From Rhodospirillaceae bacterium (GTDB lineage: Bacteria; Pseudomonadota; Alphaproteobacteria; Dongiales; Dongiaceae): a stretch of DNA of 64,000 nucleotides. A program made the position numbers and the translations under genes. Positions 53,556-63,999 of the stretch are shown piece by piece; positions within the stretch are counted from its first letter, which is position 1; each line of letters begins with the position of its first letter. The stretch lies in the NCBI GenBank assembly GCA_016794165.1, contig JAEUKV010000043.1, positions 26 through 64,025 of the forward strand, given 5' to 3'. The notes beneath the pieces are model-generated. The model saw only the letters and a program-made list of their open reading frames with translations, searched no databases and had not been told where the DNA came from.

Positions 53556-53744
53556 ATGAGTCGCGAAAAGAACGAACAGAGGGCGCTCGACATCGTCGCC
53601 GGACGGGCTGACGCGGCGACCGCGACAGCGCCCAAAAAAGCCGGCCTTGGCGGCCTGGAAAAGGCAGGCATCGCCCTTTGGCTCCTGGTCCTGCTGGGTG
53701 GCGCGCTCGCGGCGGTTTATTTCCTGGTGCTGGCACCCAAATAG
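53556..53744 (+). CDS. Small single-pass membrane protein (62 aa)
   Basis: Polar N-terminus then GIALWLLVLLGGALAAVYFLVL; fills the intergenic gap. Confidence 0.7.
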   Translation: MSREKNEQRALDIVAGRADAATATAPKKAGLGGLEKAGIALWLLVLLGGALAAVYFLVLAPK

Positions 53745-53806
53745 GCACCGCCAGCTTCCGCACATCCTGCCCGTCGGCTAAGGTGTCGCTCTCCACGGGG
53801 CGGGGC

Positions 53807-54433
53807 ATGCGCGAGATCTACGATATTTCCCAGACACTCCGCATCGGTCTACCGGTCTGGCCGGGCGACACGGCGTTCGACCTGCGGCGAGTCTGGACCA
53901 TGGGTCCCGGCGTACCGGTCAATGTCTCGGCGCTTACCTTCTCGACCCATAGCGGCAGCCACGCCGATGCGCCGCTTCACTACGACGCTGCGGGTTGCGC
54001 CATCGACGGCGTCGATCCGACTGTCTATCTGGGACCGGCACAGCTTGTCGATGCCGGAGATGCAGGCGACCTCGTCACCGCGGCGATGATTCTTCCTCAC
54101 CTTCAGCTGGGCGTCGAGCGACTCCTGATCCGCACCTATCCGGTGGCGCCACAAGCGCAGTGGGACAGCGGGTTCGCGGCAGTCGACCCGGCACTCATCG
54201 ATGCCATTGCCGCGCGCGGGGTACGGCTGATCGGGGTCGACACCCCGTCGCTCGACCCACAGGATTCCAAGACCATGGCGGCACATCTCGCCGTGGCACG
54301 GCACGGCCTCGCCATCCTGGAAGGGCTGGTGCTCGACAAGGTGCCGGTCGGCATCTATGAACTCATTGCCCTGCCCCTCAAGATTGCCGGAGCCGATTCC
54401 AGTCCGGTTCGCGCGCTGTTGCGGAGTCTCTGA
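53807..54433 (+). CDS. kynB: Kynurenine formamidase (arylformamidase)
   Basis: DISQ, WPGDT, HSGSHADAPLH, GVDTPSLDP, ILEGL, SSPVRA. Confidence 0.92.
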   Translation: MREIYDISQTLRIGLPVWPGDTAFDLRRVWTMGPGVPVNVSALTFSTHSGSHADAPLHYDAAGCAIDGVDPTVYLGPAQLVDAGDAGDLVTAAMILPHLQLGVERLLIRTYPVAPQAQWDSGFAAVDPALIDAIAARGVRLIGVDTPSLDPQDSKTMAAHLAVARHGLAILEGLVLDKVPVGIYELIALPLKIAGADSSPVRALLRSL

Positions 54434-54434
54434 C

Positions 54435-55676
54435 ATGTCACACCTCGATCGCGCCGCCTGCGCCGCCCAGGACGACGGAGATCACCTCGCCTTCGCGCGG
54501 GACCGGTTCGATCTGCCGGCCGGTATCATCTATCTCGATGGCAACTCCCTTGGCGCCCTGCCAAAGAGGACGCCGACGCGGATCGAAACGGTGATCCGCC
54601 GGCAATGGGGCACCGACCTCATTACCGGCTGGAACAAGCACGGCTGGGTCGACCTGCCGCGCCGTCTCGGCGCGCGCATCGCCGATCTGATCGGGGCACA
54701 TGCCGACGAGGTGGTGGTGTGCGATTCCACTTCGATAAACGTCTTCAAGCTGTTGAGTGCCGCCCTTCGCCTGCGCCCGGATCGCAAGGTGGTCCTCTCC
54801 GATACCGGCAATTTCCCGACCGACCTTTACATGGCACAGGGGTTGGCGGATCTGCTCGGACGGGGGCATCGCCTGGAACTGGTATCGCCGGCGGATATCA
54901 CCGCGCGCATTGCCGAGGATGTCGCCGTGGTCCTGTTGACCGAAATCGACTACCGCACCGGCCGGCGCCACGACATGGCGGCGATCAACGCCCGGGCCCG
55001 GGCCGCGGGCGCCCTGACCCTCTGGGATCTCGCCCATTCCGCCGGCGCCATGCCGGTCGATCTTGACGGCACGGGCACCGATTTCGCCATCGGCTGTGGC
55101 TATAAATACCTCAATGGCGGGCCGGGCGCCCCGGCCTTTCTCTATGTCGCGCGGCGCTGGCTCGGCGAAACGCAGCAACCGCTATTCGGCTGGTTCGGCC
55201 ATGCGGCGCCTTTCGATTTTGAAACCGCCTATCAGCCGAGATCCGGGATCGATCGGTTCCTGGTGGGAACCCCGCCGGTCCTCAGCATGGCGGCCCTCGA
55301 ATGCGGACTGGAGACCTTCGCCGGCGTCGACCTCAGCCAGCTGCGCGCCAAGTCGCTCGCCCTCGGCGATTTGATGATCCGGCTGGTGGCGCAGGAATGT
55401 CCTGGGCTGGGTCTCACCCTCGCCAGCCCGATCGACGCCGGCCGGCGTGGCAGCCAGGTGAGCTACGCTCATGCCAGCGGCTATGCCGTGATGCAGGCGC
55501 TGATTGCCCGGGGCGTCATCGGCGACTTCCGGGCGCCCGACCTTCTGCGCTTCGGCTTCACCCCGCTTTATACGCGCTACCAGGACATTTGGGATGCCGT
55601 CGCCGCCCTGAAAACCGTGCTGGAACAGGGCGAATGGCAGAGGCCCGAATTCAGCCATCGCGCCGCGGTGACCTAA
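54435..55676 (+). CDS. kynU: Kynureninase
   Basis: YLDGNSLG, CDSTSIN, NFPTDLY, WDLAHSAG, GCGYKYLNGGPG, RFGFTPLY. Confidence 0.95.
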   Translation: MSHLDRAACAAQDDGDHLAFARDRFDLPAGIIYLDGNSLGALPKRTPTRIETVIRRQWGTDLITGWNKHGWVDLPRRLGARIADLIGAHADEVVVCDSTSINVFKLLSAALRLRPDRKVVLSDTGNFPTDLYMAQGLADLLGRGHRLELVSPADITARIAEDVAVVLLTEIDYRTGRRHDMAAINARARAAGALTLWDLAHSAGAMPVDLDGTGTDFAIGCGYKYLNGGPGAPAFLYVARRWLGETQQPLFGWFGHAAPFDFETAYQPRSGIDRFLVGTPPVLSMAALECGLETFAGVDLSQLRAKSLALGDLMIRLVAQECPGLGLTLASPIDAGRRGSQVSYAHASGYAVMQALIARGVIGDFRAPDLLRFGFTPLYTRYQDIWDAVAALKTVLEQGEWQRPEFSHRAAVT

Positions 55677-55781: not shown

Positions 55782-56024
55782 ATGCGGCCGATCTTCGTGA
55801 TGGTGAAATGCGACCCCGGCAAGGCCTATGAAGTGGCGGAAAAGGCCCTCGATACCGTGCAGCAGATCGCCGAACTCTATTCGATTTCCGGCCAGTACGA
55901 CCTGCTGGTGAAATGCTACCTGCCGAGCGAGATGGATGTGGGCCGCTTCGTCACGTCGGAGTTGCAGACCCTGCCTTTCGTCAAGGATACGCTGACCGTC
56001 ATCACCTTCAACGCCTTCACCTGA
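55782..56024 (+). CDS. Lrp/AsnC ligand-binding-domain-only protein
   Basis: 80 aa, ELYSISGQYDLLVK, no HTH. Confidence 0.85.
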   Translation: MRPIFVMVKCDPGKAYEVAEKALDTVQQIAELYSISGQYDLLVKCYLPSEMDVGRFVTSELQTLPFVKDTLTVITFNAFT

Positions 56025-56071
56025 AGAGCCGCCGTCAACGGCGCATAACAAGAACTGGGAGACATGACATC

Positions 56072-57286
56072 ATGAGTACGCGTTCGTTCCTGCTGAAATC
56101 CGCCAGCGCCGGCCTGATGGCCGCCCTGCTGGCAACGCCGGCCCTGGCCACCGACACCAAGGTCGGCATTCTTTTCGACGTGACCGGCCCCATTGCCAGC
56201 TTCATTCCACCGATGATGGACGCGGTCAAGCTTGCCAATGACGAGGTAAATGCCGGCGGCGGCCTGCTCGACGGCCAGATGGTGACGGTAGTCGGGGACA
56301 CAACCGGTGCCACGCAAGGCGCGGTCGACGCCGCCACCAAGCTGGTCAACATCGAGAACGTGCCGGTCGTGGTCGGCGCCCTGATGTCCGGGACCACGCT
56401 GGCAGCAGCCAATGCCGTCACCATTCCGGCCGGCGTCACGCAGATCTCGCCCACCGCGACTTCGCCCGACTTTACCGGCCTCAACGACAACGACTATGTG
56501 TTTCGCATCGTACCGTCGGACGCCTATCAGGGTGTGGTGCTGGCAAAGCTGGTGCTCGACCAGGGCATCACGACCGTGGCGCTCACCTATGCCAACAACG
56601 ACTATGCGACGCCGCTGGCGACCGGCTTCGCCGCGGCCTACAAGGCCGGCGGCGGCACCATCGCCGCCGAAGTGAAGCATGAGGAAAAGCAGCAGAGCTA
56701 CATGGCCGAACTTGGCACCCTCGCCAAGGACAAACCGGAAGCCCTGGTGCTGATCGCCTATGCTGGCGATTCCGGCACCACCATCGTCAAGGAGGCGCTG
56801 GAGAACGATTTGTTCACCCGCTTCATCGGCACCGACGGACTGCGCGACAACAAGCTCATCGAGCAGATCGGCGCCGAGCACTTGAAAGACTCCTTCTTCA
56901 CCTCGCCATCGGCCCCCGAGAGCGAAGCCGCCACCAAGTTCGAGGCGCTCTATACGGCCGCCTTCGAGACCACAAAGGACAAGATCTTCATCGGCCAGAC
57001 TTATGATTCAGTCATGCTGGCAGCTCTCGCGGTCGAAAAAGCCGGTTCCACCGACCGCGCCAAGGTACGCGACGCGCTGCGCGAGGTCGCGAGCGCGCCC
57101 GGCGAGAAGATCCTGCCCGGCGAATGGGCCAAGGCCAAGGCCCTGATCGCGGAAGGCAAGGACATCGACTATTCCGGCGCCACCGGCGAGATGGAATTTG
57201 ACGCCAACGGCGATATCCCCGGCGTCATCGGCCATTTCGTGGTCGAGGGCGACGGCTACAAGCAGGTCGGTCTGGTCAATCCGTAA
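56072..57286 (+). CDS. ABC transporter substrate-binding protein (Liv/PBP1 type)
   Basis: Signal peptide, TGP, GALMSGTT, QISPTATSP, FRIVPSDAYQG, YSGATG...FDANGD. Confidence 0.92.
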   Translation: MSTRSFLLKSASAGLMAALLATPALATDTKVGILFDVTGPIASFIPPMMDAVKLANDEVNAGGGLLDGQMVTVVGDTTGATQGAVDAATKLVNIENVPVVVGALMSGTTLAAANAVTIPAGVTQISPTATSPDFTGLNDNDYVFRIVPSDAYQGVVLAKLVLDQGITTVALTYANNDYATPLATGFAAAYKAGGGTIAAEVKHEEKQQSYMAELGTLAKDKPEALVLIAYAGDSGTTIVKEALENDLFTRFIGTDGLRDNKLIEQIGAEHLKDSFFTSPSAPESEAATKFEALYTAAFETTKDKIFIGQTYDSVMLAALAVEKAGSTDRAKVRDALREVASAPGEKILPGEWAKAKALIAEGKDIDYSGATGEMEFDANGDIPGVIGHFVVEGDGYKQVGLVNP

Positions 57287-57306
57287 CCGACGCTTGCCCT
57301 GATTGT

Positions 57307-57348
57307 GCGGCCCGCCTTCCGCGACGATGGCGGGCCGCCGATCTTTTT
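57307..57348 (+). terminator. Hairpin with T-tract after the SBP gene
   Basis: GCGGCCCGCC-N12-GGCGGGCCGC then CGATCTTTTT. Confidence 0.55.
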
Positions 57349-57358
57349 GGAGATGCCG

Positions 57359-58027
57359 ATGCCCATCGCAGCGATCCTGTTCGATGCCTACGGCACCCTG
57401 CTCGACATCCACGCCGCCATGGCGACCCATCAGGCGCGGATCGGCCCGCGCGCCGCGGAGATATCCGCGCTGTGGCGGCAGAAGCAGCTGGAATACACCT
57501 GGACACTGACCCTGGCGCAGGACTACCGCCCCTTCGACACCGTCACCGCGGAAGCGCTCGATTTCGCCCTCGCCCAGCACGGGATCGATGATGCTGCGTT
57601 GCGCGCTGACCTGCTCGCCACCTATCGGGTTCTGCCGCCCTTTCCCGAGGTGGTCGGCGCGCTCGCGACCCTCAGGCGAAAGGGGCTCCGCCTCGGCGTC
57701 CTTTCCAATGGGACGGGCACAATGCTGGACGCCGCGTTCGCTGCAGCCGGCCTCGAGGAAATGCTGGACCCGATCCTCTCGGTGGACACCCTGCGGATTT
57801 ACAAGCCGGATCCACGCGTCTACGCCATGGCAACCAACGCATTGGCGCTGGCACCGTCCGAAATCGGATTCGTCTCCAGCAATGCCTGGGACGCCATGGG
57901 GGCCGCGCGCTTCGGCTTCCACGTCTTTTCGCTGCGACGTCGGCCAGATCCTGTCGAATACGACCTGAATTCGCGCGCAACACTGATCGCGCATCTCGGC
58001 GAGATCGCGGCTACCCTCGGCCAGTGA
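57359..58027 (+). CDS. Haloacid dehalogenase type II family hydrolase
   Basis: FDAYGTL, WRQKQLEYTW, LSNG, YKPDPRVY, VSSNAWD. Confidence 0.9.
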   Translation: MPIAAILFDAYGTLLDIHAAMATHQARIGPRAAEISALWRQKQLEYTWTLTLAQDYRPFDTVTAEALDFALAQHGIDDAALRADLLATYRVLPPFPEVVGALATLRRKGLRLGVLSNGTGTMLDAAFAAAGLEEMLDPILSVDTLRIYKPDPRVYAMATNALALAPSEIGFVSSNAWDAMGAARFGFHVFSLRRRPDPVEYDLNSRATLIAHLGEIAATLGQ

Positions 58028-58036
58028 GGCCTGCCC

Positions 58037-58981
58037 TCAATCGATCCTTCGGGGCGGTCGCTCCGGCAGGATGCCCCTGGCGAAGCGTTGCAGCACGACG
58101 ATCAGCAAAACGCCGATGAGGAGCGCGCGCAGATAGGACGAACGCGTGATCCACTCGGCCGGCAGGCGATTGGTGAAGAGCTCCGTCCCCGACCAGATCA
58201 GCCAGACGACCAGTGCACCCAGCAGCGCCCCCCGATTGTTGCCGCTGCCACCGATGATCAGCATCACCCAAACCAGGAAGGTCGTGAGCAGCGGCTCGGT
58301 TGCGCTGGCGCCGATGAACTTGAAATACATGGCCGAGAGTGCGCCGCCAAGACCCATCACCATCGACCCGATGACGAAGGCCTCGAGCCGAAACCGTACC
58401 ACGTCCTTGCCGATCGCAGCGGCGGCCAACTCGTTGTCGCGAATGGCCCGCATGGCACGGCCCCAAGGCGACGCCCAGGCACGCTCGGCGGCAAGATAAA
58501 GTACGACGAGAATCAGCACGACCAGCAACAGGAAGGCAGCATTTCCCCAGGGCTGACCGAGGCTTTCGAACGGTCGCGGCACGGTCGAGATGCCCATGGT
58601 ACCGTTGGCGAGCCAGGTCTCGTTCTTGAACACGAGCCGGATGATCTCGGCGATGCCGATGCTCGCCATGGCGAGGTAGTCACCCTTGAGGCCGAGGCAG
58701 ATGCGCCCGATCGGCCAGGCGATCAGGCCCGAGAGCAGCATCGCCACCGGCAAGGCTGCCAAGGGCGGCCAGCCGAAGCCGCCCAGATGGTTGGCACTTT
58801 CCGGCGCTGTCAGGATCGCTGTCGTGTAGGCGCCCACGGCGAAGAACCCGGCGATGCCAGCGTTGAACAAGCCAGCAAAACCCCACTGCAGGTTGAGAGC
58901 CAATGTCAGCACGCCATAAATGCCGATCATGGTCAGTAGCGTAAGGCCATACATCAGCAGGCCGAACATGGGGATATCCAT
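58037..58981 (-). CDS. Liv-type ABC permease (LivM-like)
   Basis: LNLQWGFAGLFN.G, L.GDYLA, RAIRDNELAA, GGSGNN.G; TGATG coupling to upstream gene. Confidence 0.92.
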   Translation of the reverse strand: MDIPMFGLLMYGLTLLTMIGIYGVLTLALNLQWGFAGLFNAGIAGFFAVGAYTTAILTAPESANHLGGFGWPPLAALPVAMLLSGLIAWPIGRICLGLKGDYLAMASIGIAEIIRLVFKNETWLANGTMGISTVPRPFESLGQPWGNAAFLLLVVLILVVLYLAAERAWASPWGRAMRAIRDNELAAAAIGKDVVRFRLEAFVIGSMVMGLGGALSAMYFKFIGASATEPLLTTFLVWVMLIIGGSGNNRGALLGALVVWLIWSGTELFTNRLPAEWITRSSYLRALLIGVLLIVVLQRFARGILPERPPRRID

Positions 58982-59871
58982 CACAGTACCCGCCCCTTGA
59001 ACAGTCCCGTCGGTCGCCACACCAGCATTGCCACCATGACGAAGAAGGCGACCGCATTCTTGTAGGCCGGCGGCACCAGTGGCAATTCGCTCAGCCAGGG
59101 ATAGGTGGCGACCTCCTGGGCGATGCCGATGGCAAGCCCACCGACAATGGCACCATAGGGCCGCCCGATCCCGCCCAGGATTGCCGCGGCAAAAAGTGGC
59201 AGCAACAGATCCCAGCCGATGCTGGGGTGCAGCTTGGTATTGATGCCGGCGAACACGCCCGCCGCCGCCGCGAGCCCTCCCCCGATCAGCCAGGTCCAGC
59301 GCACGACCTTCTCTGTATCGATGCCCGAGATGCGGGCGAGATCGGCATCGTCACTCATCGCCCGCATCGCCTTGCCCATGCGGCTGCGGCTGAGAAACCA
59401 GTGCAGCGCCGCGGCAATGACCACGGAGGCGGCGATGATGATGATGTGTTTCTGCGCCAGGCGGATATCGCCAAAGAGCGGAATCGGTCGTCGGATGCCG
59501 GTTTCGTAGCTGAGGATATCGACACCCCAGAAAAGCTGGATCGCCGAACGCACCACCAGCATGACGCCAAACGAGGCGATGACGACAATAATCCCCGGCG
59601 ACCGTCGGAAGGGCCGATAGACAACGTGATCAATGCCCATACTGGCCAAAGCGCCACCCAGGATCGCAAAGGGCAACGCCGCATAAACCGACCAGCCAAG
59701 CGCGATCACAACACTATAGGCAAGATAGGCACCCAGCGTCATCACGTCGCCATGGGCGAAATGAGCAAAACGCAGGATCGCGAAGATCAGCGAGATGCCG
59801 ACCGCGCCCAGCGCATAGATGCAGCCCACCGCGACGCCCGGCAGCAGATAGAGGTTGATGAACTCGGCCAT
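58981..59871 (-). CDS. Liv-type ABC permease (LivH-like)
   Basis: YALGAVG.SL, FAHFAHGD, GKAMRAMSDD..LA..SGI, AILGGIG. Confidence 0.92.
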   Translation of the reverse strand: MAEFINLYLLPGVAVGCIYALGAVGISLIFAILRFAHFAHGDVMTLGAYLAYSVVIALGWSVYAALPFAILGGALASMGIDHVVYRPFRRSPGIIVVIASFGVMLVVRSAIQLFWGVDILSYETGIRRPIPLFGDIRLAQKHIIIIAASVVIAAALHWFLSRSRMGKAMRAMSDDADLARISGIDTEKVVRWTWLIGGGLAAAAGVFAGINTKLHPSIGWDLLLPLFAAAILGGIGRPYGAIVGGLAIGIAQEVATYPWLSELPLVPPAYKNAVAFFVMVAMLVWRPTGLFKGRVL

Positions 59872-59882
59872 GCGATCGTTCC

Positions 59883-60587
59883 TCACCCGCCCAGAAAGGA
59901 CTGGCCGATTTCGGGATTGTCGAGCAGGGCAGCTGCCGTATCCGTCAGGCGATTGCGACCGGTCGCCAGCACATAGCCGCGATGCGCGATGCTGAGTGCC
60001 TGCCGGGCGTTCTGCTCCACCAGCAGGATGCCGATTCCGGCCTGGTTGACCGCGACGATCCGCTCGAAAATCTGCTCCATCACCAGTGGCGAGAGCCCGG
60101 CCGTGGGTTCATCCAGCATCAACAGCTTTGGTTCCGCCATCAGGGCGCGGCCCACCGCTACCATCTGGCGCTGCCCACCGGAAAGTTCGCCTGCCGGCTG
60201 GCGCGCCTTTTCCTTGAGGACGGGAAACAGCGTGAACACCTGTTCCAGCATGCGCGCCAGCGTCATCGGTTTCAGGAAGGCTCCCATCTCCAGGTTTTCC
60301 AGCACGGTGAGATTGCGAAAGACGTTGCGCTCCTGGGGCACGTAGCCCATGCCAAGGCCGACCAGCGCATTGGGCAGCCGGCCGGTCACATCCTGACCGT
60401 CGAACCGGACCGATCCGGCGCGCAACTGCACCAGGCCGAAGATCGCCTTCATCGCTGTGGACTTGCCGGCCCCATTGGCGCCAATGATGACGACGATCTC
60501 GTTGGCTTCCACGGCGAGATCAACCCCATTCAGGATATCCATCCCACCATAGCCACCAACCATTCCGCTCGCCTCAAGCAGCGCCAC
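59883..60587 (-). CDS. Liv-type ABC ATPase (LivF-like)
   Basis: GANGAGKST, LSGGQRQM, LDEPTAGL, LVEQN; start approximate. Confidence 0.93.
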   Translation of the reverse strand: MALLEASGMVGGYGGMDILNGVDLAVEANEIVVIIGANGAGKSTAMKAIFGLVQLRAGSVRFDGQDVTGRLPNALVGLGMGYVPQERNVFRNLTVLENLEMGAFLKPMTLARMLEQVFTLFPVLKEKARQPAGELSGGQRQMVAVGRALMAEPKLLMLDEPTAGLSPLVMEQIFERIVAVNQAGIGILLVEQNARQALSIAHRGYVLATGRNRLTDTAAALLDNPEIGQSFLGG

Positions 60588-61380
60588 GACGCACCCCATC
60601 ATGACCCGACTTGCCACCGCCCAGATAGGCCTCGATCACCGCTTGGTCGCCGCGCACGTCGGCCATCGATCCCTGCATCAGGACCCGCCCCTCCGCCATC
60701 ACGATCACCGGATGGCACAGGCGCGCGATCAGGTCCATGTCGTGTTCGATGACGAAGAAGGTATAGCCGTGATCTCGGTTCAGCCGCTCGATTTCACCGG
60801 CGATTTCGGCCAGCAGGGTGCGATTCACGCCGGCGCCGATCTCGTCGAGCAGCACCACCTTGGGCTGCCACATCATGGTGCGCGCGAGCTCGACCAGCTT
60901 TTTCTGGCCGCCGGAAAGATTCCCGGCAAGTTCATGTTTGACGTGATCGATACGCAGCTGCGCCAGGACCTCCTCGGCACGCAGCCGGATACCCTTCTCT
61001 TCCCGCCGTACCGCCGGCCAGCGCAGCCAGGCATTGACCAGGCGCTCGCCGGATTGGCGCGCAGGCACCGCCATCAGGTTCTCCAGCACGGTCATGCGGC
61101 CGAATTCGTGGGCGATCTGGAAGGTGCGGGCGAGCCCCTTCCGGAACAGCCTGTGTGCCGGCCAACCGGTCACATCCTCGCCATCGAGCCAAACCGTTCC
61201 CTGGTCGGGCGCCAACAGACCGGCGATGATGTTGAACAGGGTCGACTTGCCCGCCCCGTTCGGTCCGATCAGGCCCGTGACCGAGCCCTTGGCCACCGCC
61301 AATGAGCAGCCGTCGACGGCCCGGATGCCGCCGAATCGTTTGACGAGATTTTCGACCTTGATCATCTGGCCCGCGATCAC
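60574..61380 (-). CDS. Liv-type ABC ATPase (LivG-like)
   Basis: FGGIRAVD, GPNGAGKST, RTFQ, LSGGQKK, LLDE, IEHDM. Confidence 0.93.
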   Translation of the reverse strand: MIAGQMIKVENLVKRFGGIRAVDGCSLAVAKGSVTGLIGPNGAGKSTLFNIIAGLLAPDQGTVWLDGEDVTGWPAHRLFRKGLARTFQIAHEFGRMTVLENLMAVPARQSGERLVNAWLRWPAVRREEKGIRLRAEEVLAQLRIDHVKHELAGNLSGGQKKLVELARTMMWQPKVVLLDEIGAGVNRTLLAEIAGEIERLNRDHGYTFFVIEHDMDLIARLCHPVIVMAEGRVLMQGSMADVRGDQAVIEAYLGGGKSGHDGVRRGAA

Positions 61381-62885
61381 TTGGGCCGCGCAGCGGAATG
61401 CTCCGGCAGATAGTTTGCAAACTCGTGCTCCACCGCCTTGGCATCGAGTGCCAGTCCGCAGGCAACGCCGGAAGCCATGCCGCCGGGATAGATTTCCTCC
61501 GCCCGGCCGCGCAGGCCCTGGATGATCGCCTCGGCAACCGCCGTCGGGCGCATCTTCATGCCTTCGAAGCCCGGCGTCATCGGTGTGTCCACGGCACCCG
61601 GCAGCACTCCCATGACATGCGTGCCCTGCTGCTTCAACTCGGCCCGCAATCCCTGCGTCAGGGACAGCAGGGCCGCCTTGGACGCGGCATAGGTCGACAT
61701 CAGCGGCAGGTTGACATGGGCCACGATGGTGATGAGGTTCACCATCGCCCCGCCGCCATTCCTTGCCAGCAGCGGCTGGAAGGCGCGGGCCATGGCGAAC
61801 GTGCCGAGATAGTTGACCTCCATCTCGTGCCGCGCGTTTTCCAGACTGCCGGGGGCGAACAGGCCCTCATTGGAATTCCATCCGGCATTGTTGACCAGCA
61901 GAGTGACGTCGGCGCAGGCCCTGGCCGCCTTGTCGATGCTGGCAGGATCCGCGACATCGAGCTGAACCGGCACCAAACGATCGGGCGCCACGGCCACCAG
62001 GGTGCGCAGGGAATCCGGATTGCGCGCCGCGCAGTACACCTTCGCCACCCCGGCGCGCAGCAGCGCGCGCACGGTTTCGCTGCCGATGCCGCCATTGGCG
62101 CCCGTCACCAGGGCGACCGCATCCTTGACGAGATCCGGACCCGAACCAAGCGCCGCCCGGGCGACGGCGCCCTTGGCCCCGTCCTGGATCAGGCCCTGGT
62201 CATAGGCCAGCACCACCCACTGGAAGCCCTGTGCCCGCCGGTCGGCGGCCATGCTGGCATAGGGCGTGAAGATGCCGCAGGTCTTCCCGGCCGCCTTCGC
62301 AGCCGCCAGCACAGACTGAACCGCAGCCTCGTGCTTCGGCCCGAAATCCGGAAAGGTGCCCAGCGACATGGAAAGATCGAATGGGCCGATGAACAGCATG
62401 TCGATACCGGGAACGGCCGCGATCTCGGCGGCGTTGGCGACCGCTTCTGCCGTCTCGATCATGACGGCGACCAGGATGTCGTCGTTGGCGCCGCCGATAT
62501 AAGCCTTGTAGTCGAGCATCGGCCGCGTTCCGCCGCCCGAGCGGCCGCCCAGAGGCGGATACTTGGCCTTGCGCACCACTGCCCTGGCCTGTGCCGCCGT
62601 ATCCACCATCGGCACGATGAGCGCACGGGCGCCGGCATCGAGGACCGAGCCGATGGCATAGTCGCTGTCATCGGCACTCCTGACGGCAGGCACCGCGCGA
62701 TGGCGGACCAGGCCCACGGCATGCTCCAGGCTGCCGCGGTCCCAGAGCCCGTGCTGCATGTCGAAAACGACGCTGTCGGGGCCGGATTCCGCCAGCAGTT
62801 CCGCAGCGGAGGGCAAGCCCAGGGTCGCCCAATGGCAGGTGACGCAGCCACCAGACGCCAGTTTCTCCTTGAGTGGGTTGCTCAT
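61377..62885 (-). CDS. Fusion of HpcH/HpaI class II aldolase domain and SDR oxidoreductase domain
   Basis: aa 1-245: DMQHG, AVR, VPMV, MIET, FIGPFDL; aa 253-502: VTGANGGIG, LVNNAG, YAASK, PGAVDT; one continuous frame. Confidence 0.9.
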   Translation of the reverse strand: MSNPLKEKLASGGCVTCHWATLGLPSAAELLAESGPDSVVFDMQHGLWDRGSLEHAVGLVRHRAVPAVRSADDSDYAIGSVLDAGARALIVPMVDTAAQARAVVRKAKYPPLGGRSGGGTRPMLDYKAYIGGANDDILVAVMIETAEAVANAAEIAAVPGIDMLFIGPFDLSMSLGTFPDFGPKHEAAVQSVLAAAKAAGKTCGIFTPYASMAADRRAQGFQWVVLAYDQGLIQDGAKGAVARAALGSGPDLVKDAVALVTGANGGIGSETVRALLRAGVAKVYCAARNPDSLRTLVAVAPDRLVPVQLDVADPASIDKAARACADVTLLVNNAGWNSNEGLFAPGSLENARHEMEVNYLGTFAMARAFQPLLARNGGGAMVNLITIVAHVNLPLMSTYAASKAALLSLTQGLRAELKQQGTHVMGVLPGAVDTPMTPGFEGMKMRPTAVAEAIIQGLRGRAEEIYPGGMASGVACGLALDAKAVEHEFANYLPEHSAARPK

Positions 62886-62886
62886 G

Positions 62887-63999
62887 CTATTGGCCGGCGC
62901 TTTCCGCCCAGCGCTTCATCAGCGTGTTGGAGGGCAACTTCTCGTCCAGGAGCTTCTTCGCAGTCTCGATTCCGGCGGTGGGCAGGTTCTTCGGATCCAA
63001 CAGGCCGATCTGCACCAGCACCGAGGCCTGGTCCCAGTAGATATGTTCGTTGTAGAGCTTGTCGCCGCGGAAACAGACGATGGCAACCAGCGGGATCTCG
63101 ACATATTTGCCCGTGGGTGCCACGCCCGGCAGCATCCAGTCGATTTCCCTGTCATGGGTAAAGCAGAACAGCATCTCGTCGACGACACGATCGGCACCTA
63201 TCGTGCGCGAGATGGGAATGAGCTTGGTGTCGGCCGGGTTCGCATTCACGAAATGGTGCTGATAGAAGCGCGAGAGGTCCTTGGCGCCCACGCCTCCGGT
63301 CATGGTCGGAATGTGGTTGACATAGGGTTCGGCCACCATCGTCGCCATGGTGGCGGCGACATCGCGCGTCGCGAACTCGTGGTAACAATGCGCATCCCAC
63401 AACGCGGAGAGATCGTAGCGCGGGCCAAGTGCCTTGCGGAACACGGCGATCGATCGCGAATGGGCCATGATCGAGGCCGGCTTGTCGAAATGCTCGCCCA
63501 TGGTGCGCGCAAAGGCGTGGTCGACTCCCGGATAGGTATAGAGTTCGATCTCCGGCCGGTCCTTCAGCGCGGCATAGATCTGGTCGCGCGCATCCTTGCC
63601 GCAATACTGGTCGAGTTCGGCAAAATGCAGCACGGTCGGGCATTTGATGTTACGAGCCTCGTCGAGCGCGCCTTCGATGCCGACACCGTAATAGCCGACC
63701 GCAGCATCGACATCGACGCGGGCCGCGGTGAGATAAGCGAGTTTTCCGCCCAGGCAATGACCGAGGACGCCGACCTTGCCGTTGCAGGCCGCATGCCGGC
63801 GCAACGCCGCCACTGTGGCGCCGATATCCTCGATGCCCGTATCGACGTCGAATTTCTGGAAAAAGCCGAACGCCTTCTGCCATTCCTCCGGCGAATAGCC
63901 CATGTCGACATTGGGCTCCATGCGCCAGAAGAGATCCGGTGCCAACACCACATAGCCTTCCTCAGCGTAGTAGTCCGCCGTTTCCCGCACATAGGCATT
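62887..63999 (-). CDS. Dienelactone hydrolase fused to SnoaL/NTF2-like domain (5'-truncated)
   Basis: GYVVLAPDLFWR, GHCLGG nucleophile elbow, YPGVDHAF; C-domain PYVNHIPT.TGG, VDEM, EHIYWDQASVL. Confidence 0.9.
   Translation of the reverse strand, partial: NAYVRETADYYAEEGYVVLAPDLFWRMEPNVDMGYSPEEWQKAFGFFQKFDVDTGIEDIGATVAALRRHAACNGKVGVLGHCLGGKLAYLTAARVDVDAAVGYYGVGIEGALDEARNIKCPTVLHFAELDQYCGKDARDQIYAALKDRPEIELYTYPGVDHAFARTMGEHFDKPASIMAHSRSIAVFRKALGPRYDLSALWDAHCYHEFATRDVAATMATMVAEPYVNHIPTMTGGVGAKDLSRFYQHHFVNANPADTKLIPISRTIGADRVVDEMLFCFTHDREIDWMLPGVAPTGKYVEIPLVAIVCFRGDKLYNEHIYWDQASVLVQIGLLDPKNLPTAGIETAKKLLDEKLPSNTLMKRWAESAGQ

Follow-up and report, generated by a model that had tools for sequence, protein, structure and literature searches.

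An HpcH/HpaI aldolase-SDR fusion protein of Dongiaceae, its association with an IifA-type gene and a candidate role in the catabolism of oxidised indole derivatives

In the iif and dhoAB-ipoABC indole operons, IifC/D convert indole to indole-2,3-dihydrodiol, IifB forms 3-hydroxyindolin-2-one, and IifA, a cofactor-independent oxygenase, converts the latter to anthranilate (PMC6221969, PMC10934121, PMC12538310), an activity established for the Acinetobacter enzyme (PMC6221969, PMC10934121). Here we analysed a stretch of 64,000 nucleotides (referred to as the window) on contig JAEUKV010000043.1 from a Rhodospirillaceae bacterium of the family Dongiaceae, in which the gene for an IifA homologue is followed by a gene that joins an HpcH/HpaI class II pyruvate aldolase and a short-chain dehydrogenase/reductase (SDR) in a single polypeptide. 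As in the indole operons, an IifA homologue (68% identical to the product of the first gene of an iif-type operon) is encoded upstream and an SDR gene is located next to it; in contrast to these operons, the SDR is not IifB (32% identity), IifC/D are absent, and an aldolase and an ABC importer are found instead. The specific reading that we propose for the fusion protein, with a rough probability of 0.4, is that the aldolase gives pyruvate and isatin and the SDR reduces isatin to the substrate of IifA.

Each of the proposed steps has a counterpart in described systems. In Variovorax, the side chain is removed reductively by IadF, IadG and IadH, giving C8H7NO2 (PMC12633357), which is the formula of 3-hydroxyindolin-2-one. 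The likeness to the window lies in the proposed C-C cleavage of the C3 side chain combined with a dehydrogenase, leading through C8H7NO2 toward anthranilate. The iad system differs in using three separate enzymes (ligase, thiolase and alcohol dehydrogenase) and CoA activation, and there is no sequence relationship; on the reading proposed here the fusion would be a one-polypeptide analogue of the IadF/IadG/IadH trio. SDR-type carbonyl reductases that convert isatin to 3-hydroxyindolin-2-one are cited in PMC10934121. They share with our proposal an NADPH-dependent SDR step, but they are animal enzymes of another SDR subfamily, for which no orthology is claimed. The coupling itself may be compared with DmpFG and BphIJ, two-subunit complexes of an HMGL-type aldolase and an acylating aldehyde dehydrogenase by which the aldehyde is oxidised to acyl-CoA. 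In both cases the carbonyl product of a pyruvate aldolase is received by a nicotinamide-dependent enzyme physically joined to it. The analogy concerns logic only, since the window protein is a single chain of the HpcH_HpaI plus adh_short type, is probably reductive, and falls outside the DmpFG/BphIJ group.

Structure and distribution of the fusion protein

A frame of 502 amino acid residues containing both enzymes had been reported in an earlier reading of the same DNA (hereafter the original prediction), and is present in the open reading frame (ORF) listing on the minus strand, which that reading had left unstated (Table 1). Pfam detected HpcH_HpaI (PF03328) at residues 19-232, covering profile positions 5-217 of 221 (114.6 bits against a cut-off of 25, E = 5e-33), and adh_short (PF00106) at residues 257-438 (130.9 bits against a cut-off of 26.6, E = 5e-38). 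All the motifs named beforehand were located at the expected sites. The motifs observed are MQHGLW (H45), AVR (R69), MIET (E144) and GPFDL (D170) in the aldolase half, and TGANGGIG (261-268), AAR (R288), NNAG (332-335), Thr386 in place of the usual Ser and YAASK (399-403) in the SDR half. The window protein is a genuine fusion, in which both domains look complete.

The two halves are not separable at the level of translation. In agreement with the claim that the linker offers no start for a separate SDR, inspection codon by codon detected no in-frame ATG, GTG or TTG within residues 226-259 of the fusion. The SDR half lacks an independent start because the first in-frame start past the linker, a GTG at V260, is situated within the Rossmann beta-1 strand. 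Structure prediction had been suggested as a check, and the AlphaFold2 model built from a 99-homologue alignment gave one confident chain with a mean predicted local distance difference test (pLDDT) value of 94.2 and a predicted template-modelling score (pTM) of 0.88, the linker region scoring 92-98. No PDB entry covering both domains was detected by Foldseek, the best query TM-score being 0.47.

A word-indexed search of 5.8 billion proteins, clustered at 90% identity, yielded about 295 clusters of full-length fusion homologues, which originated from NCBI, JGI, ENA and Logan assemblies. The best 120 of these 295 homologues, hereafter the 120 homologues, were all about 500 residues long, carried both Pfam domains and were 54-86% identical to the window protein; those with a named source came from Dongia sp., Dongia deserti, Dongiaceae or Geminicoccaceae. 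An orthologue with 86% identity is encoded by Dongia mobilis CGMCC 1.7660 (locus L048). The database labels were generic, 'SDR family oxidoreductase' at NCBI and 'RhmA/short-subunit dehydrogenase' at JGI. A whole-genome search of the window's own genome detected one copy. Within the home family (Dongia or Dongiaceae in the match names), a fusion match was present in 43 of 81 genomes and 5 of 17 genera, and these 43 matches were nearly all full-length and uninterrupted (three break off at the edge of a contig, four contain one stop that is read through and one was frameshifted). Outside the home family, only two of about 400 genomes of the class carried the fusion, G290 with 52% and G182 with 46% identity. 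The family is narrow, because a library clustered at 50% identity held only one further full-length representative, P0122.

In a single contig, the same picture would arise if a sequencing error or an overlooked stop codon had merged two neighbouring genes, and this was the refutation foreseen in the original prediction. The chance of such an artefact is now close to nil. A relative, G074, does carry the gene in shifted frames (L043, G074:C1:41940-43381), and at first sight this copy looked like two ORFs, as expected for a natural split ancestor. Two frameshifts inside one gene rule this out, and the copy appears from its sequence to be a pseudogene or to carry indel errors rather than to represent a natural two-gene form. 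Misassembly is very unlikely because the same continuous frame recurs in dozens of independent assemblies from four sources, with an uninterrupted two-domain ORF in about 295 clusters and in 43 of the 81 family genomes, and the linker is conserved and modelled with high confidence.

The fused architecture is thus conserved, taxonomically narrow, generically annotated and, as far as found, uncharacterised. A description of it was not found in the open-access literature, an absence that is weak evidence by itself. The original prediction had not known this architecture as a described one, which holds insofar as neither a paper nor a solved structure was found, but the protein is not unique, since about 300 clusters make up its conserved family. 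Nothing categorically new is involved, as each domain is of a well-known family and that of the neighbour has been characterised.

The IifA-type partner and the origin of the SDR half

The identity of the upstream neighbour was derived from a scan of IifA-type loci, in which one genome was used per species. The IifA-type protein of the window, which is partial, was 68% identical over 368 residues to the product of L106:8004-9239 of Marinobacterium, the first gene of an iifABCDE-type operon. In this operon the IifA-type gene is followed by those for an adh_short_C2 SDR (262 residues), a Smoa_sbd protein (414), a Flavin_Reduct protein (178) and, in the place of iifE, an ORF of 299 residues whose counterpart in L068 is Phenol_MetA_deg; a divergent gene for an AraC-type regulator recurs across the iif-type loci. 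The recurrent series of DLH-SnoaL (about 411 residues), adh_short_C2 (262), Smoa_sbd (414), Flavin_Reduct (178), Phenol_MetA_deg (about 300) and AraC equals the iifA-B-C-D-E/iifR operon of A. baumannii, the products of which are 416, 261, 412, 176, 315 and 352 residues long and fall into the same Pfam families (PMC4577076, Table 2). Based on this equivalence and on the 68% identity to the head of the operon, the DLH-SnoaL gene of the window was assigned to the IifA family. Marinobacterium is among the genomes bearing such clusters in the WHOP study (PMC12538310). By homology, we infer that the IifA-type protein of the window converts 3-hydroxyindolin-2-one to anthranilate.

A full-length orthologue of the IifA-type protein matched ClcD (PDB 1din) with E = 2e-43, and the DLH half keeps the Cys nucleophile together with residues aligned with Glu36, Arg81, His202 and Arg206 of ClcD. 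The NTF2/SnoaL-like C-terminal half is better conserved than the hydrolase half and includes long invariant stretches rich in His, Asp and Trp (alignment A3), which suggests that the oxygenase chemistry resides in the NTF2-like half. The ClcD-like residues and some extradiol dioxygenase neighbours had prompted the idea of a non-orthologous counterpart to the lower part of the protocatechuate 4,5-cleavage pathway (lactol dehydrogenase, lactonase, isomerase and aldolase), which was superseded by the direct match of the neighbour to IifA. A natural one-domain form was also noted in five genomes of the same genus, all lacking the fusion (G053, G056, G075, G077 and G079), each having a stand-alone DLH-only homologue 66-68% identical to residues 1-235 of the IifA-like protein, with the match ending at about residue 235-241; this form was seen only in genomes without the fusion.

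Proteins of the two-domain IifA type, 64-72% identical, were detected at no fewer than 592 loci (at least 592) in Alpha-, Beta- and Gammaproteobacteria and Acidimicrobiia. When ORFs within 6.5 kb of the IifA-type gene were clustered for 85 loci, the neighbours included, by number of loci, Opp components (30, 25 and 17), divergent AraC (24), the alpha subunit of Rieske oxygenase (12), Peripla_BP_6 (12), a styrene-monooxygenase-like flavoenzyme (12), AMP-forming ligase (10), MarR (9), flavin reductase (8), VOC-fold proteins (7), Phenol_MetA_deg (6) and TctC (6).

The fusion gene is closely associated with genes of this type. Of the first 16 fusion loci fetched (L001-L047), nine have an IifA-type gene (62-91% identical by tblastn) as the immediate upstream neighbour of the fusion; the same adjacency was repeated in L048-L052, and in three more loci such a gene was close by. 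Among the 81 family genomes, 38 carried both genes, five the fusion only, one the IifA-like gene only and 37 neither (Fisher p = 2e-16, without correction for phylogeny). The five fusion-only genomes are all fragmented (220-930 contigs), and the single genome with only the IifA-like gene is 66% complete. The association extends beyond the family, as both G290 and G182 carry an IifA-like gene, and on a Geminicoccaceae contig the IifA-like gene is located about 11 kb from the fusion (L004 and L098 on the same record).

The SDR is found beside IifA-type genes even where no aldolase is present. In other alphaproteobacterial families, stand-alone SDRs 52-57% identical to the fused SDR directly adjoin an IifA-type gene, without an aldolase. 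Among the best 80 of the IifA-type loci, a PRK08264-type SDR was adjacent in about 12, and in about 13 more the SDR closed an Opp-type ABC operon, at a constant distance of 5.2-5.35 kb downstream; the aldolase was present only in five loci of the Dongiaceae type. Overall, an SDR of this type was recorded beside an IifA-like gene, or as the last member of an Opp-type operon headed by one, with no aldolase, in about 30 of 80 loci from Alpha-, Beta- and Gammaproteobacteria and Acidimicrobiia. In 75 non-Dongiaceae loci, no unfused aldolase was detected within 8 kb of the IifA-linked stand-alone SDRs. In a FastTree phylogeny of 190 SDR domains, 61 of the 63 aldolase-fused SDR domains formed one clade (support 91; 60 of them at 98), placed beside the IifA-linked stand-alone SDRs, so that a single fusion event may account for the family. 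The SDR half therefore descends from a stand-alone SDR of a kind repeatedly encoded beside IifA-type genes in several phyla. Since the SDR occurs alone beside IifA-like genes elsewhere, the aldolase was added and fused later: IifA-type gene, SDR and importer form an old combination, which an HpcH-type aldolase joined at a later stage by insertion and fusion to the N-terminus of the SDR. As a separate observation, in the two Opp-type loci examined for this, L111:13526-15148 and L066:13608-15182 (both on the plus strand), the last ATPase of the Opp operon is joined to a PRK08264-type SDR in one ORF of about 525-540 residues, an architecture odd in itself, which Pfam confirmed for L111 and for P0125.

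The position of the fused SDR beside the IifA-like gene raises the question of whether it simply replaces IifB, acting in the oxidative direction on a diol or lactol to give the IifA substrate. The aldolase would then act on another intermediate, such as a fragment of the side chain or a compound that results from ring opening once the IifA-like enzyme has acted, and the two domains would be co-regulated without being consecutive. The canonical SDR of the iif pathway, IifB, indeed directly precedes IifA by an oxidation (PMC6221969). The fused SDR, however, was only 32% identical over 182 residues to the IifB-type SDR of L106:9252-10040 (adh_short_C2), and thus is not an IifB orthologue. In addition, the loci with the fused SDR lack the IifC/D monooxygenase that supplies the substrate of IifB, and both R288 and the NADP-bound structure nearest to this SDR (see below) point to NADP(H), the use of which usually means reduction in vivo. 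Covalent fusion, moreover, usually joins consecutive steps. An IifB-like role is therefore improbable. From the difference between the fused SDR and IifB and the lack of IifC/D it also follows that the compound entering the pathway is probably not indole.

Active sites and the proposed two-step reaction

The aldolase half keeps every catalytic and metal-binding residue. We take the catalytic set of these aldolases to be Arg70, His45 and the Glu/Asp metal ligands in HpaI numbering; the equivalents in the fusion, R69, H45, E144 and D170, were invariant in all 120 homologues. The predicted TIM-barrel fold matched 4b5w, 2v5k, 2vws and 6r62 of the HpaI/HpcH/YfaU group (Foldseek TMt 0.83-0.90), the nearest PDB entries in sequence being 6r62 (SwHKA) and 2vws (YfaU), with E = 1e-32. 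Fold, catalytic residues and 30-36% identity are thus shared with HpaI/HpcH, YfaU (RhmA), GarL and SwHKA, from which the window domain differs by its own motifs, QHGLWDR and PPxGxRSGGG, and by the attached SDR. As the scores remained far below every NCBIfam equivalog cut-off (129 of 369 bits for HpaI TIGR02311, 111 of 407 for GarL TIGR03239 and 111 of 441 for RhmA NF007521), this half does not belong to any of the HpaI, GarL and RhmA equivalogs. One further relative was noted, P0227 (497 residues), in which an HpcH aldolase of the same subfamily, 43% identical and with the QHGLWDR and RSGGG motifs, is joined to a PF04199 cyclase-family domain. PF04199 is also the Pfam family of the cyclase-family gene in the window, annotated as kynurenine formamidase in relatives. 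A link between the two was considered, but the cyclase halves are only 24% identical, which gives at most weak support.

The genes around related aldolases bear on the nature of the substrate. The closest stand-alone aldolase, with 49% identity, was found in G081, where the next genes encode first an aminotransferase and then an orthologue of the window's Liv importer (LivG 69%, LivM 61% identity). In G290, a HisC-like class I/II aminotransferase gene comes directly after the fusion, with stop and start overlapping. The aminotransferases of G290 and G081 are 51% identical to each other and 46-50% identical to the homologue in the window's genome, which adjoins a prephenate-dehydrogenase-like gene in what, on our own reading of the sequence, looks like the usual hisC/tyrC arrangement. 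The aminotransferase neighbours in G290 and G081 point to a 2-oxoacid of amino-acid origin, in favour of which the type of importer beside the fusion, for amino acids (Liv), was also counted. Because the module of G081 exists without IifA, the operon of Dongiaceae looks like a merger of two units, an aldolase with an amino-acid importer and an IifA-type gene with an SDR. Directly upstream of the G081 module, a 189-residue ORF (L128:10557-11126, minus strand) combines a 4-oxalocrotonate-tautomerase-type domain with a SnoaL_2/DUF4440 NTF2-like domain.

With such an aldolase, the pair could also serve for general aldehyde capture, the second option of the original prediction: an ordinary 4-hydroxy-2-oxoacid, such as 4-hydroxy-2-oxoglutarate derived from a gamma-hydroxy amino acid or a 2-keto-3-deoxy sugar acid, would be cleaved to pyruvate and a reactive aldehyde (glyoxylate, lactaldehyde or a semialdehyde), and the SDR would reduce the aldehyde with NADPH, without any link to IifA. 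The logic of aldolase followed by reductase has its precedent in GarL/GarR. The aldolase domain is about equally far from HpaI, GarL and RhmA (111-129 bits), an aldolase-aminotransferase-Liv module without IifA exists in G081, and 2-Hacid_dh genes follow two distant fusion loci, all in agreement with this possibility. It leaves unexplained, however, both the IifA-linked ancestry of the SDR and the near-perfect co-occurrence and adjacency with IifA-like genes, and the scores to the characterised equivalogs are all far under their cut-offs. We consider it unlikely. A sugar-acid pathway of the RhmA/GarL type was dropped as a lead on the same equivalog scores and because no sugar-acid genes were detected near the fusion.

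The SDR half was assigned to subfamily NF006118 (PRK08264.1-4) of NCBIfam with 304.4 bits at residues 253-493 (cut-off 279). The nearest SDR structure was PDB 5u4s from Burkholderia cenocepacia in complex with NADP (E = 4.5e-49, 40-42% identity, Foldseek TMt 0.94). With the PRK08264.1-4 SDRs, including 5u4s, the fused domain shares the subfamily score and the NADP-type Arg after beta-2, but these proteins stand alone and are uncharacterised. The key residues of the window protein are TGANGGIG, R288, D310, NNAG, N358, T386, Y399 and K403, among which N358, T386 (Thr replacing Ser), Y399 and K403 occupy the positions of the Asn-Ser-Tyr-Lys tetrad. G262, G266, G268, R288, N332, N358 and K403 were invariant in the 120 homologues. 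The suggestion of NADP from the AAR motif is borne out by the conservation of R288, the NADP-type Arg, and by the NADP held in 5u4s.

Two positions of the active site vary within the fusion family. At the position of the usual Ser, the 120 homologues carry Thr in 16, Ser in 99 and Ala in 5; at that of the catalytic Tyr, Tyr in 23, Leu in 90 and Phe in 7, i.e. about 80% Leu or Phe. An SDR that is canonical apart from Ser to Thr, as originally described, is therefore true of the window protein but not of its family, where Leu prevails at the Tyr position. The combination of Thr386 and Tyr399 is found in the window protein and its close relatives (75% identity or more), most of the family being Ser+Leu, as is 5u4s. 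In all fetched loci taken together, Ser+Leu was found 34 times, Thr+Tyr 12 times, Ser+Tyr 10 times and Thr+Leu never. Distant stand-alone relatives have the canonical Ser+Tyr in 83 of 109 cases, and many IifA-linked stand-alone SDRs also carry Leu or Phe in place of the catalytic Tyr. On the SDR tree, 11 changes or more between Tyr and Leu (Phe) are needed, and the Thr+Tyr clade of the window is nested within the Ser+Leu fusion proteins. At position 390 the IifA-linked clades have a basic residue (His, Arg or Lys), and unlinked SDRs mostly Leu.

The absence of the catalytic Tyr from so many members could mean that only the aldolase turns over substrate, while the SDR half binds NADP(H) for a structural or regulatory purpose, for instance to organise the aldolase oligomer or to sense the redox state. 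Consistent with this, 5u4s has Leu at the same position yet binds NADP, and the same type of SDR is also fused to the ATPase of an ABC transporter. The window protein and its clade, on the other hand, possess both Tyr399 and Lys403, and the conservation of N358, K403, NNAG and, in the substrate loop, N392, L393, P394 and M396 suggests a working active site. The strict covariation of Ser+Leu and Thr+Tyr resembles compensatory tuning of an active site rather than decay. A non-catalytic SDR half is thus quite improbable overall, and is more plausible for the Leu-type members than for the Tyr-bearing window protein. We argue that the Tyr/Leu pattern speaks against simple decay and for two alternative active-site set-ups. 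As a speculation, the very electrophilic C3 carbonyl of isatin might explain why a Tyr general acid is dispensable.

The ancestry of the SDR beside IifA genes and the co-occurrence of fusion and IifA-like genes point to catabolism of oxidised indole or tryptophan derivatives that ends in anthranilate. Because a class II aldolase needs a 4-hydroxy-2-oxoacid and the SDR lineage is tied to a consumer of 3-hydroxyindolin-2-one, two consecutive fused steps via isatin represent the simplest scheme. In this scheme, one operon would be expressed for the IifA-like oxygenase, the aldolase-SDR and the Liv-type ABC importer, in this order. The importer would take up a compound derived from tryptophan or indole, perhaps an aromatic amino acid with a gamma-hydroxy group, for example dioxindolylalanine. 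Transamination or oxidative deamination, if it is an amino acid, would turn the compound into a 4-hydroxy-2-oxoacid in which C4 corresponds to C3 of a 3-hydroxy-2-oxindole. This oxoacid, formally the aldol adduct of isatin and pyruvate, might also be reached by oxidation of indole-3-pyruvate. The aldolase domain would cleave the adduct by a Mg2+/Mn2+-dependent retro-aldol reaction to pyruvate and isatin, the SDR domain would reduce isatin with NADPH to 3-hydroxyindolin-2-one, and the IifA-type enzyme would oxidise the latter to anthranilate.

The idea of a two-step enzyme in the original prediction thus remains the most likely reading, the fusion being genuine, while the generic substrates then offered (2-keto-3-deoxy acids or any aldehyde) take no account of the neighbouring genes. 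The channelling then suggested is conjectural, a confident single-chain model (pTM 0.88) being what bears on it. More broadly, it is rather probable that the two domains both work, one after the other, in a pathway linked to IifA, and the route via isatin is the specific form of this view. Several points weigh against this form. The candidate substrate of the fusion was deduced only from its neighbours, and we know of no documented occurrence of the isatin-pyruvate adduct as a metabolite. HpcH/HpaI aldolases are mainly known to use aldehyde rather than ketone acceptors. The absence of the SDR catalytic Tyr from the majority of the fusion homologues is awkward for a carbonyl reductase, although the window protein has it. 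No aminotransferase is encoded in the window operon, and no IifA-like gene accompanies the aldolase, aminotransferase and Liv importer in G081, so that this module can function in the absence of IifA, perhaps with a different substrate. A small 2-oxoacid or aldehyde as product, for example glyoxylate, would agree with the 2-Hacid_dh genes close to two distant fusion loci. Finally, the steps would follow in another order if the IifA homologues concerned acted on a substituted analogue, as they could.

If the proposal is true, the locus would provide a compact enzyme for two steps, together with a full set of candidate operon functions (importer, C-C lyase, reductase and oxygenase), for the conversion of oxidised indole or tryptophan derivatives to anthranilate and pyruvate. 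Isatin, dioxindole, oxindoles and auxin catabolites are signals in soils, plant roots and animal guts, and the known routes from such oxidised indoles to anthranilate still include unassigned steps. The fusion would also act as a Rosetta-stone link, indicating a likely function for the widespread SDRs of the PRK08264.1-4 type, including 5u4s, that are encoded beside IifA-like genes in several phyla. The repeated replacement of the catalytic Tyr in a conserved and apparently functional SDR lineage would be of interest to enzymologists, and a natural aldolase-reductase fusion may serve as a biocatalyst for chiral 3-substituted 3-hydroxy-oxindoles. The strongest version, in which a new CoA-independent route for oxidised tryptophan or indole-pyruvate derivatives is combined with repeated loss of Tyr and a Tyr-independent mechanism, perhaps via the basic residue at position 390, is put forward as unlikely.

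The operon and the converging genes

The fusion belongs to a set of minus-strand genes in the order IifA-type gene, fusion, LivG, LivF, LivH and LivM (Table 1). The TAG stop of the IifA-type gene is separated by one base from the ATG of the fusion, and the TGA stop of the fusion is overlapped by the GTG of LivG, an alternative ATG being located 12 nucleotides downstream. The 5' end of the IifA-type gene is cut by the contig end, and the window copy thus lacks about the first 40 residues. The location of LivG directly after the fusion is conserved across the Dongiaceae loci.

Table 1. Location of the fusion gene, its domains and the surrounding genes in the window
Feature	Position	Strand	Basis and remarks
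Aldolase-SDR fusion gene	61377..62885	-	502 residues plus stop, ATG start; ORF listing, two Pfam domains
HpcH/HpaI class II pyruvate aldolase domain, residues 1-245	62151..62885	-	Pfam PF03328, PDB/Foldseek matches, residue conservation
Linker LGSGPDLVKD, ten residues, residues 246-255	62121..62150	-	Codon table; block pLDDT 92-98
Classical NADP-type SDR domain, residues 256-502	61380..62120	-	Pfam PF00106, NCBIfam NF006118, PDB 5u4s
IifA-type gene, DLH fold plus NTF2/SnoaL-like fold	62887..63999	-	Pfam DLH E 5e-36, SnoaL weak
LivG-type ABC ATPase	60574..61380	-	Pfam ABC_tran and BCA_ABC_TP_C
LivF-type ABC ATPase	59883..60617	-	Pfam ABC_tran; synteny
LivH-type permease	58981..59886	-	Pfam BPD_transp_2
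LivM-type permease, last gene of the operon	58037..59020	-	Pfam BPD_transp_2
HAD-family hydrolase, FDAYGTL motif	57305..58027	+	Pfam Hydrolase and HAD_2
Peripla_BP_6 solute-binding protein	55913..57286	+	Pfam; position conserved in relatives, part of the operon in L006
Cyclase-family (PF04199) gene and kynureninase gene	53678..55676	+	Pfam Cyclase and KYNU_C; same order in L001 and L002

On the plus strand, converging with the operon, are the genes for a DAO-type oxidase, the PF04199 cyclase-family protein, kynureninase, a small AsnC-type protein (assigned by synteny), the Peripla_BP_6 protein and the HAD hydrolase. The Peripla_BP_6 protein is probably the binding component of the Liv-type importer. 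The kynureninase and cyclase-family genes represent a second route to anthranilate, making the locus a small anthranilate hub. No tryptophan 2,3-dioxygenase was detected among the genes called in L001 and L002, two syntenic relatives, so that import of kynurenine or a related compound is a possibility. The HAD hydrolase with the FDAYGTL motif, which we take to resemble (L-)2-haloacid dehalogenases, recurs in the convergent orientation in L001, L002, L042, L043, L045, L048 and L052, and in several genera (L042, L045 and L052) its gene converges right after the fusion or its importer.

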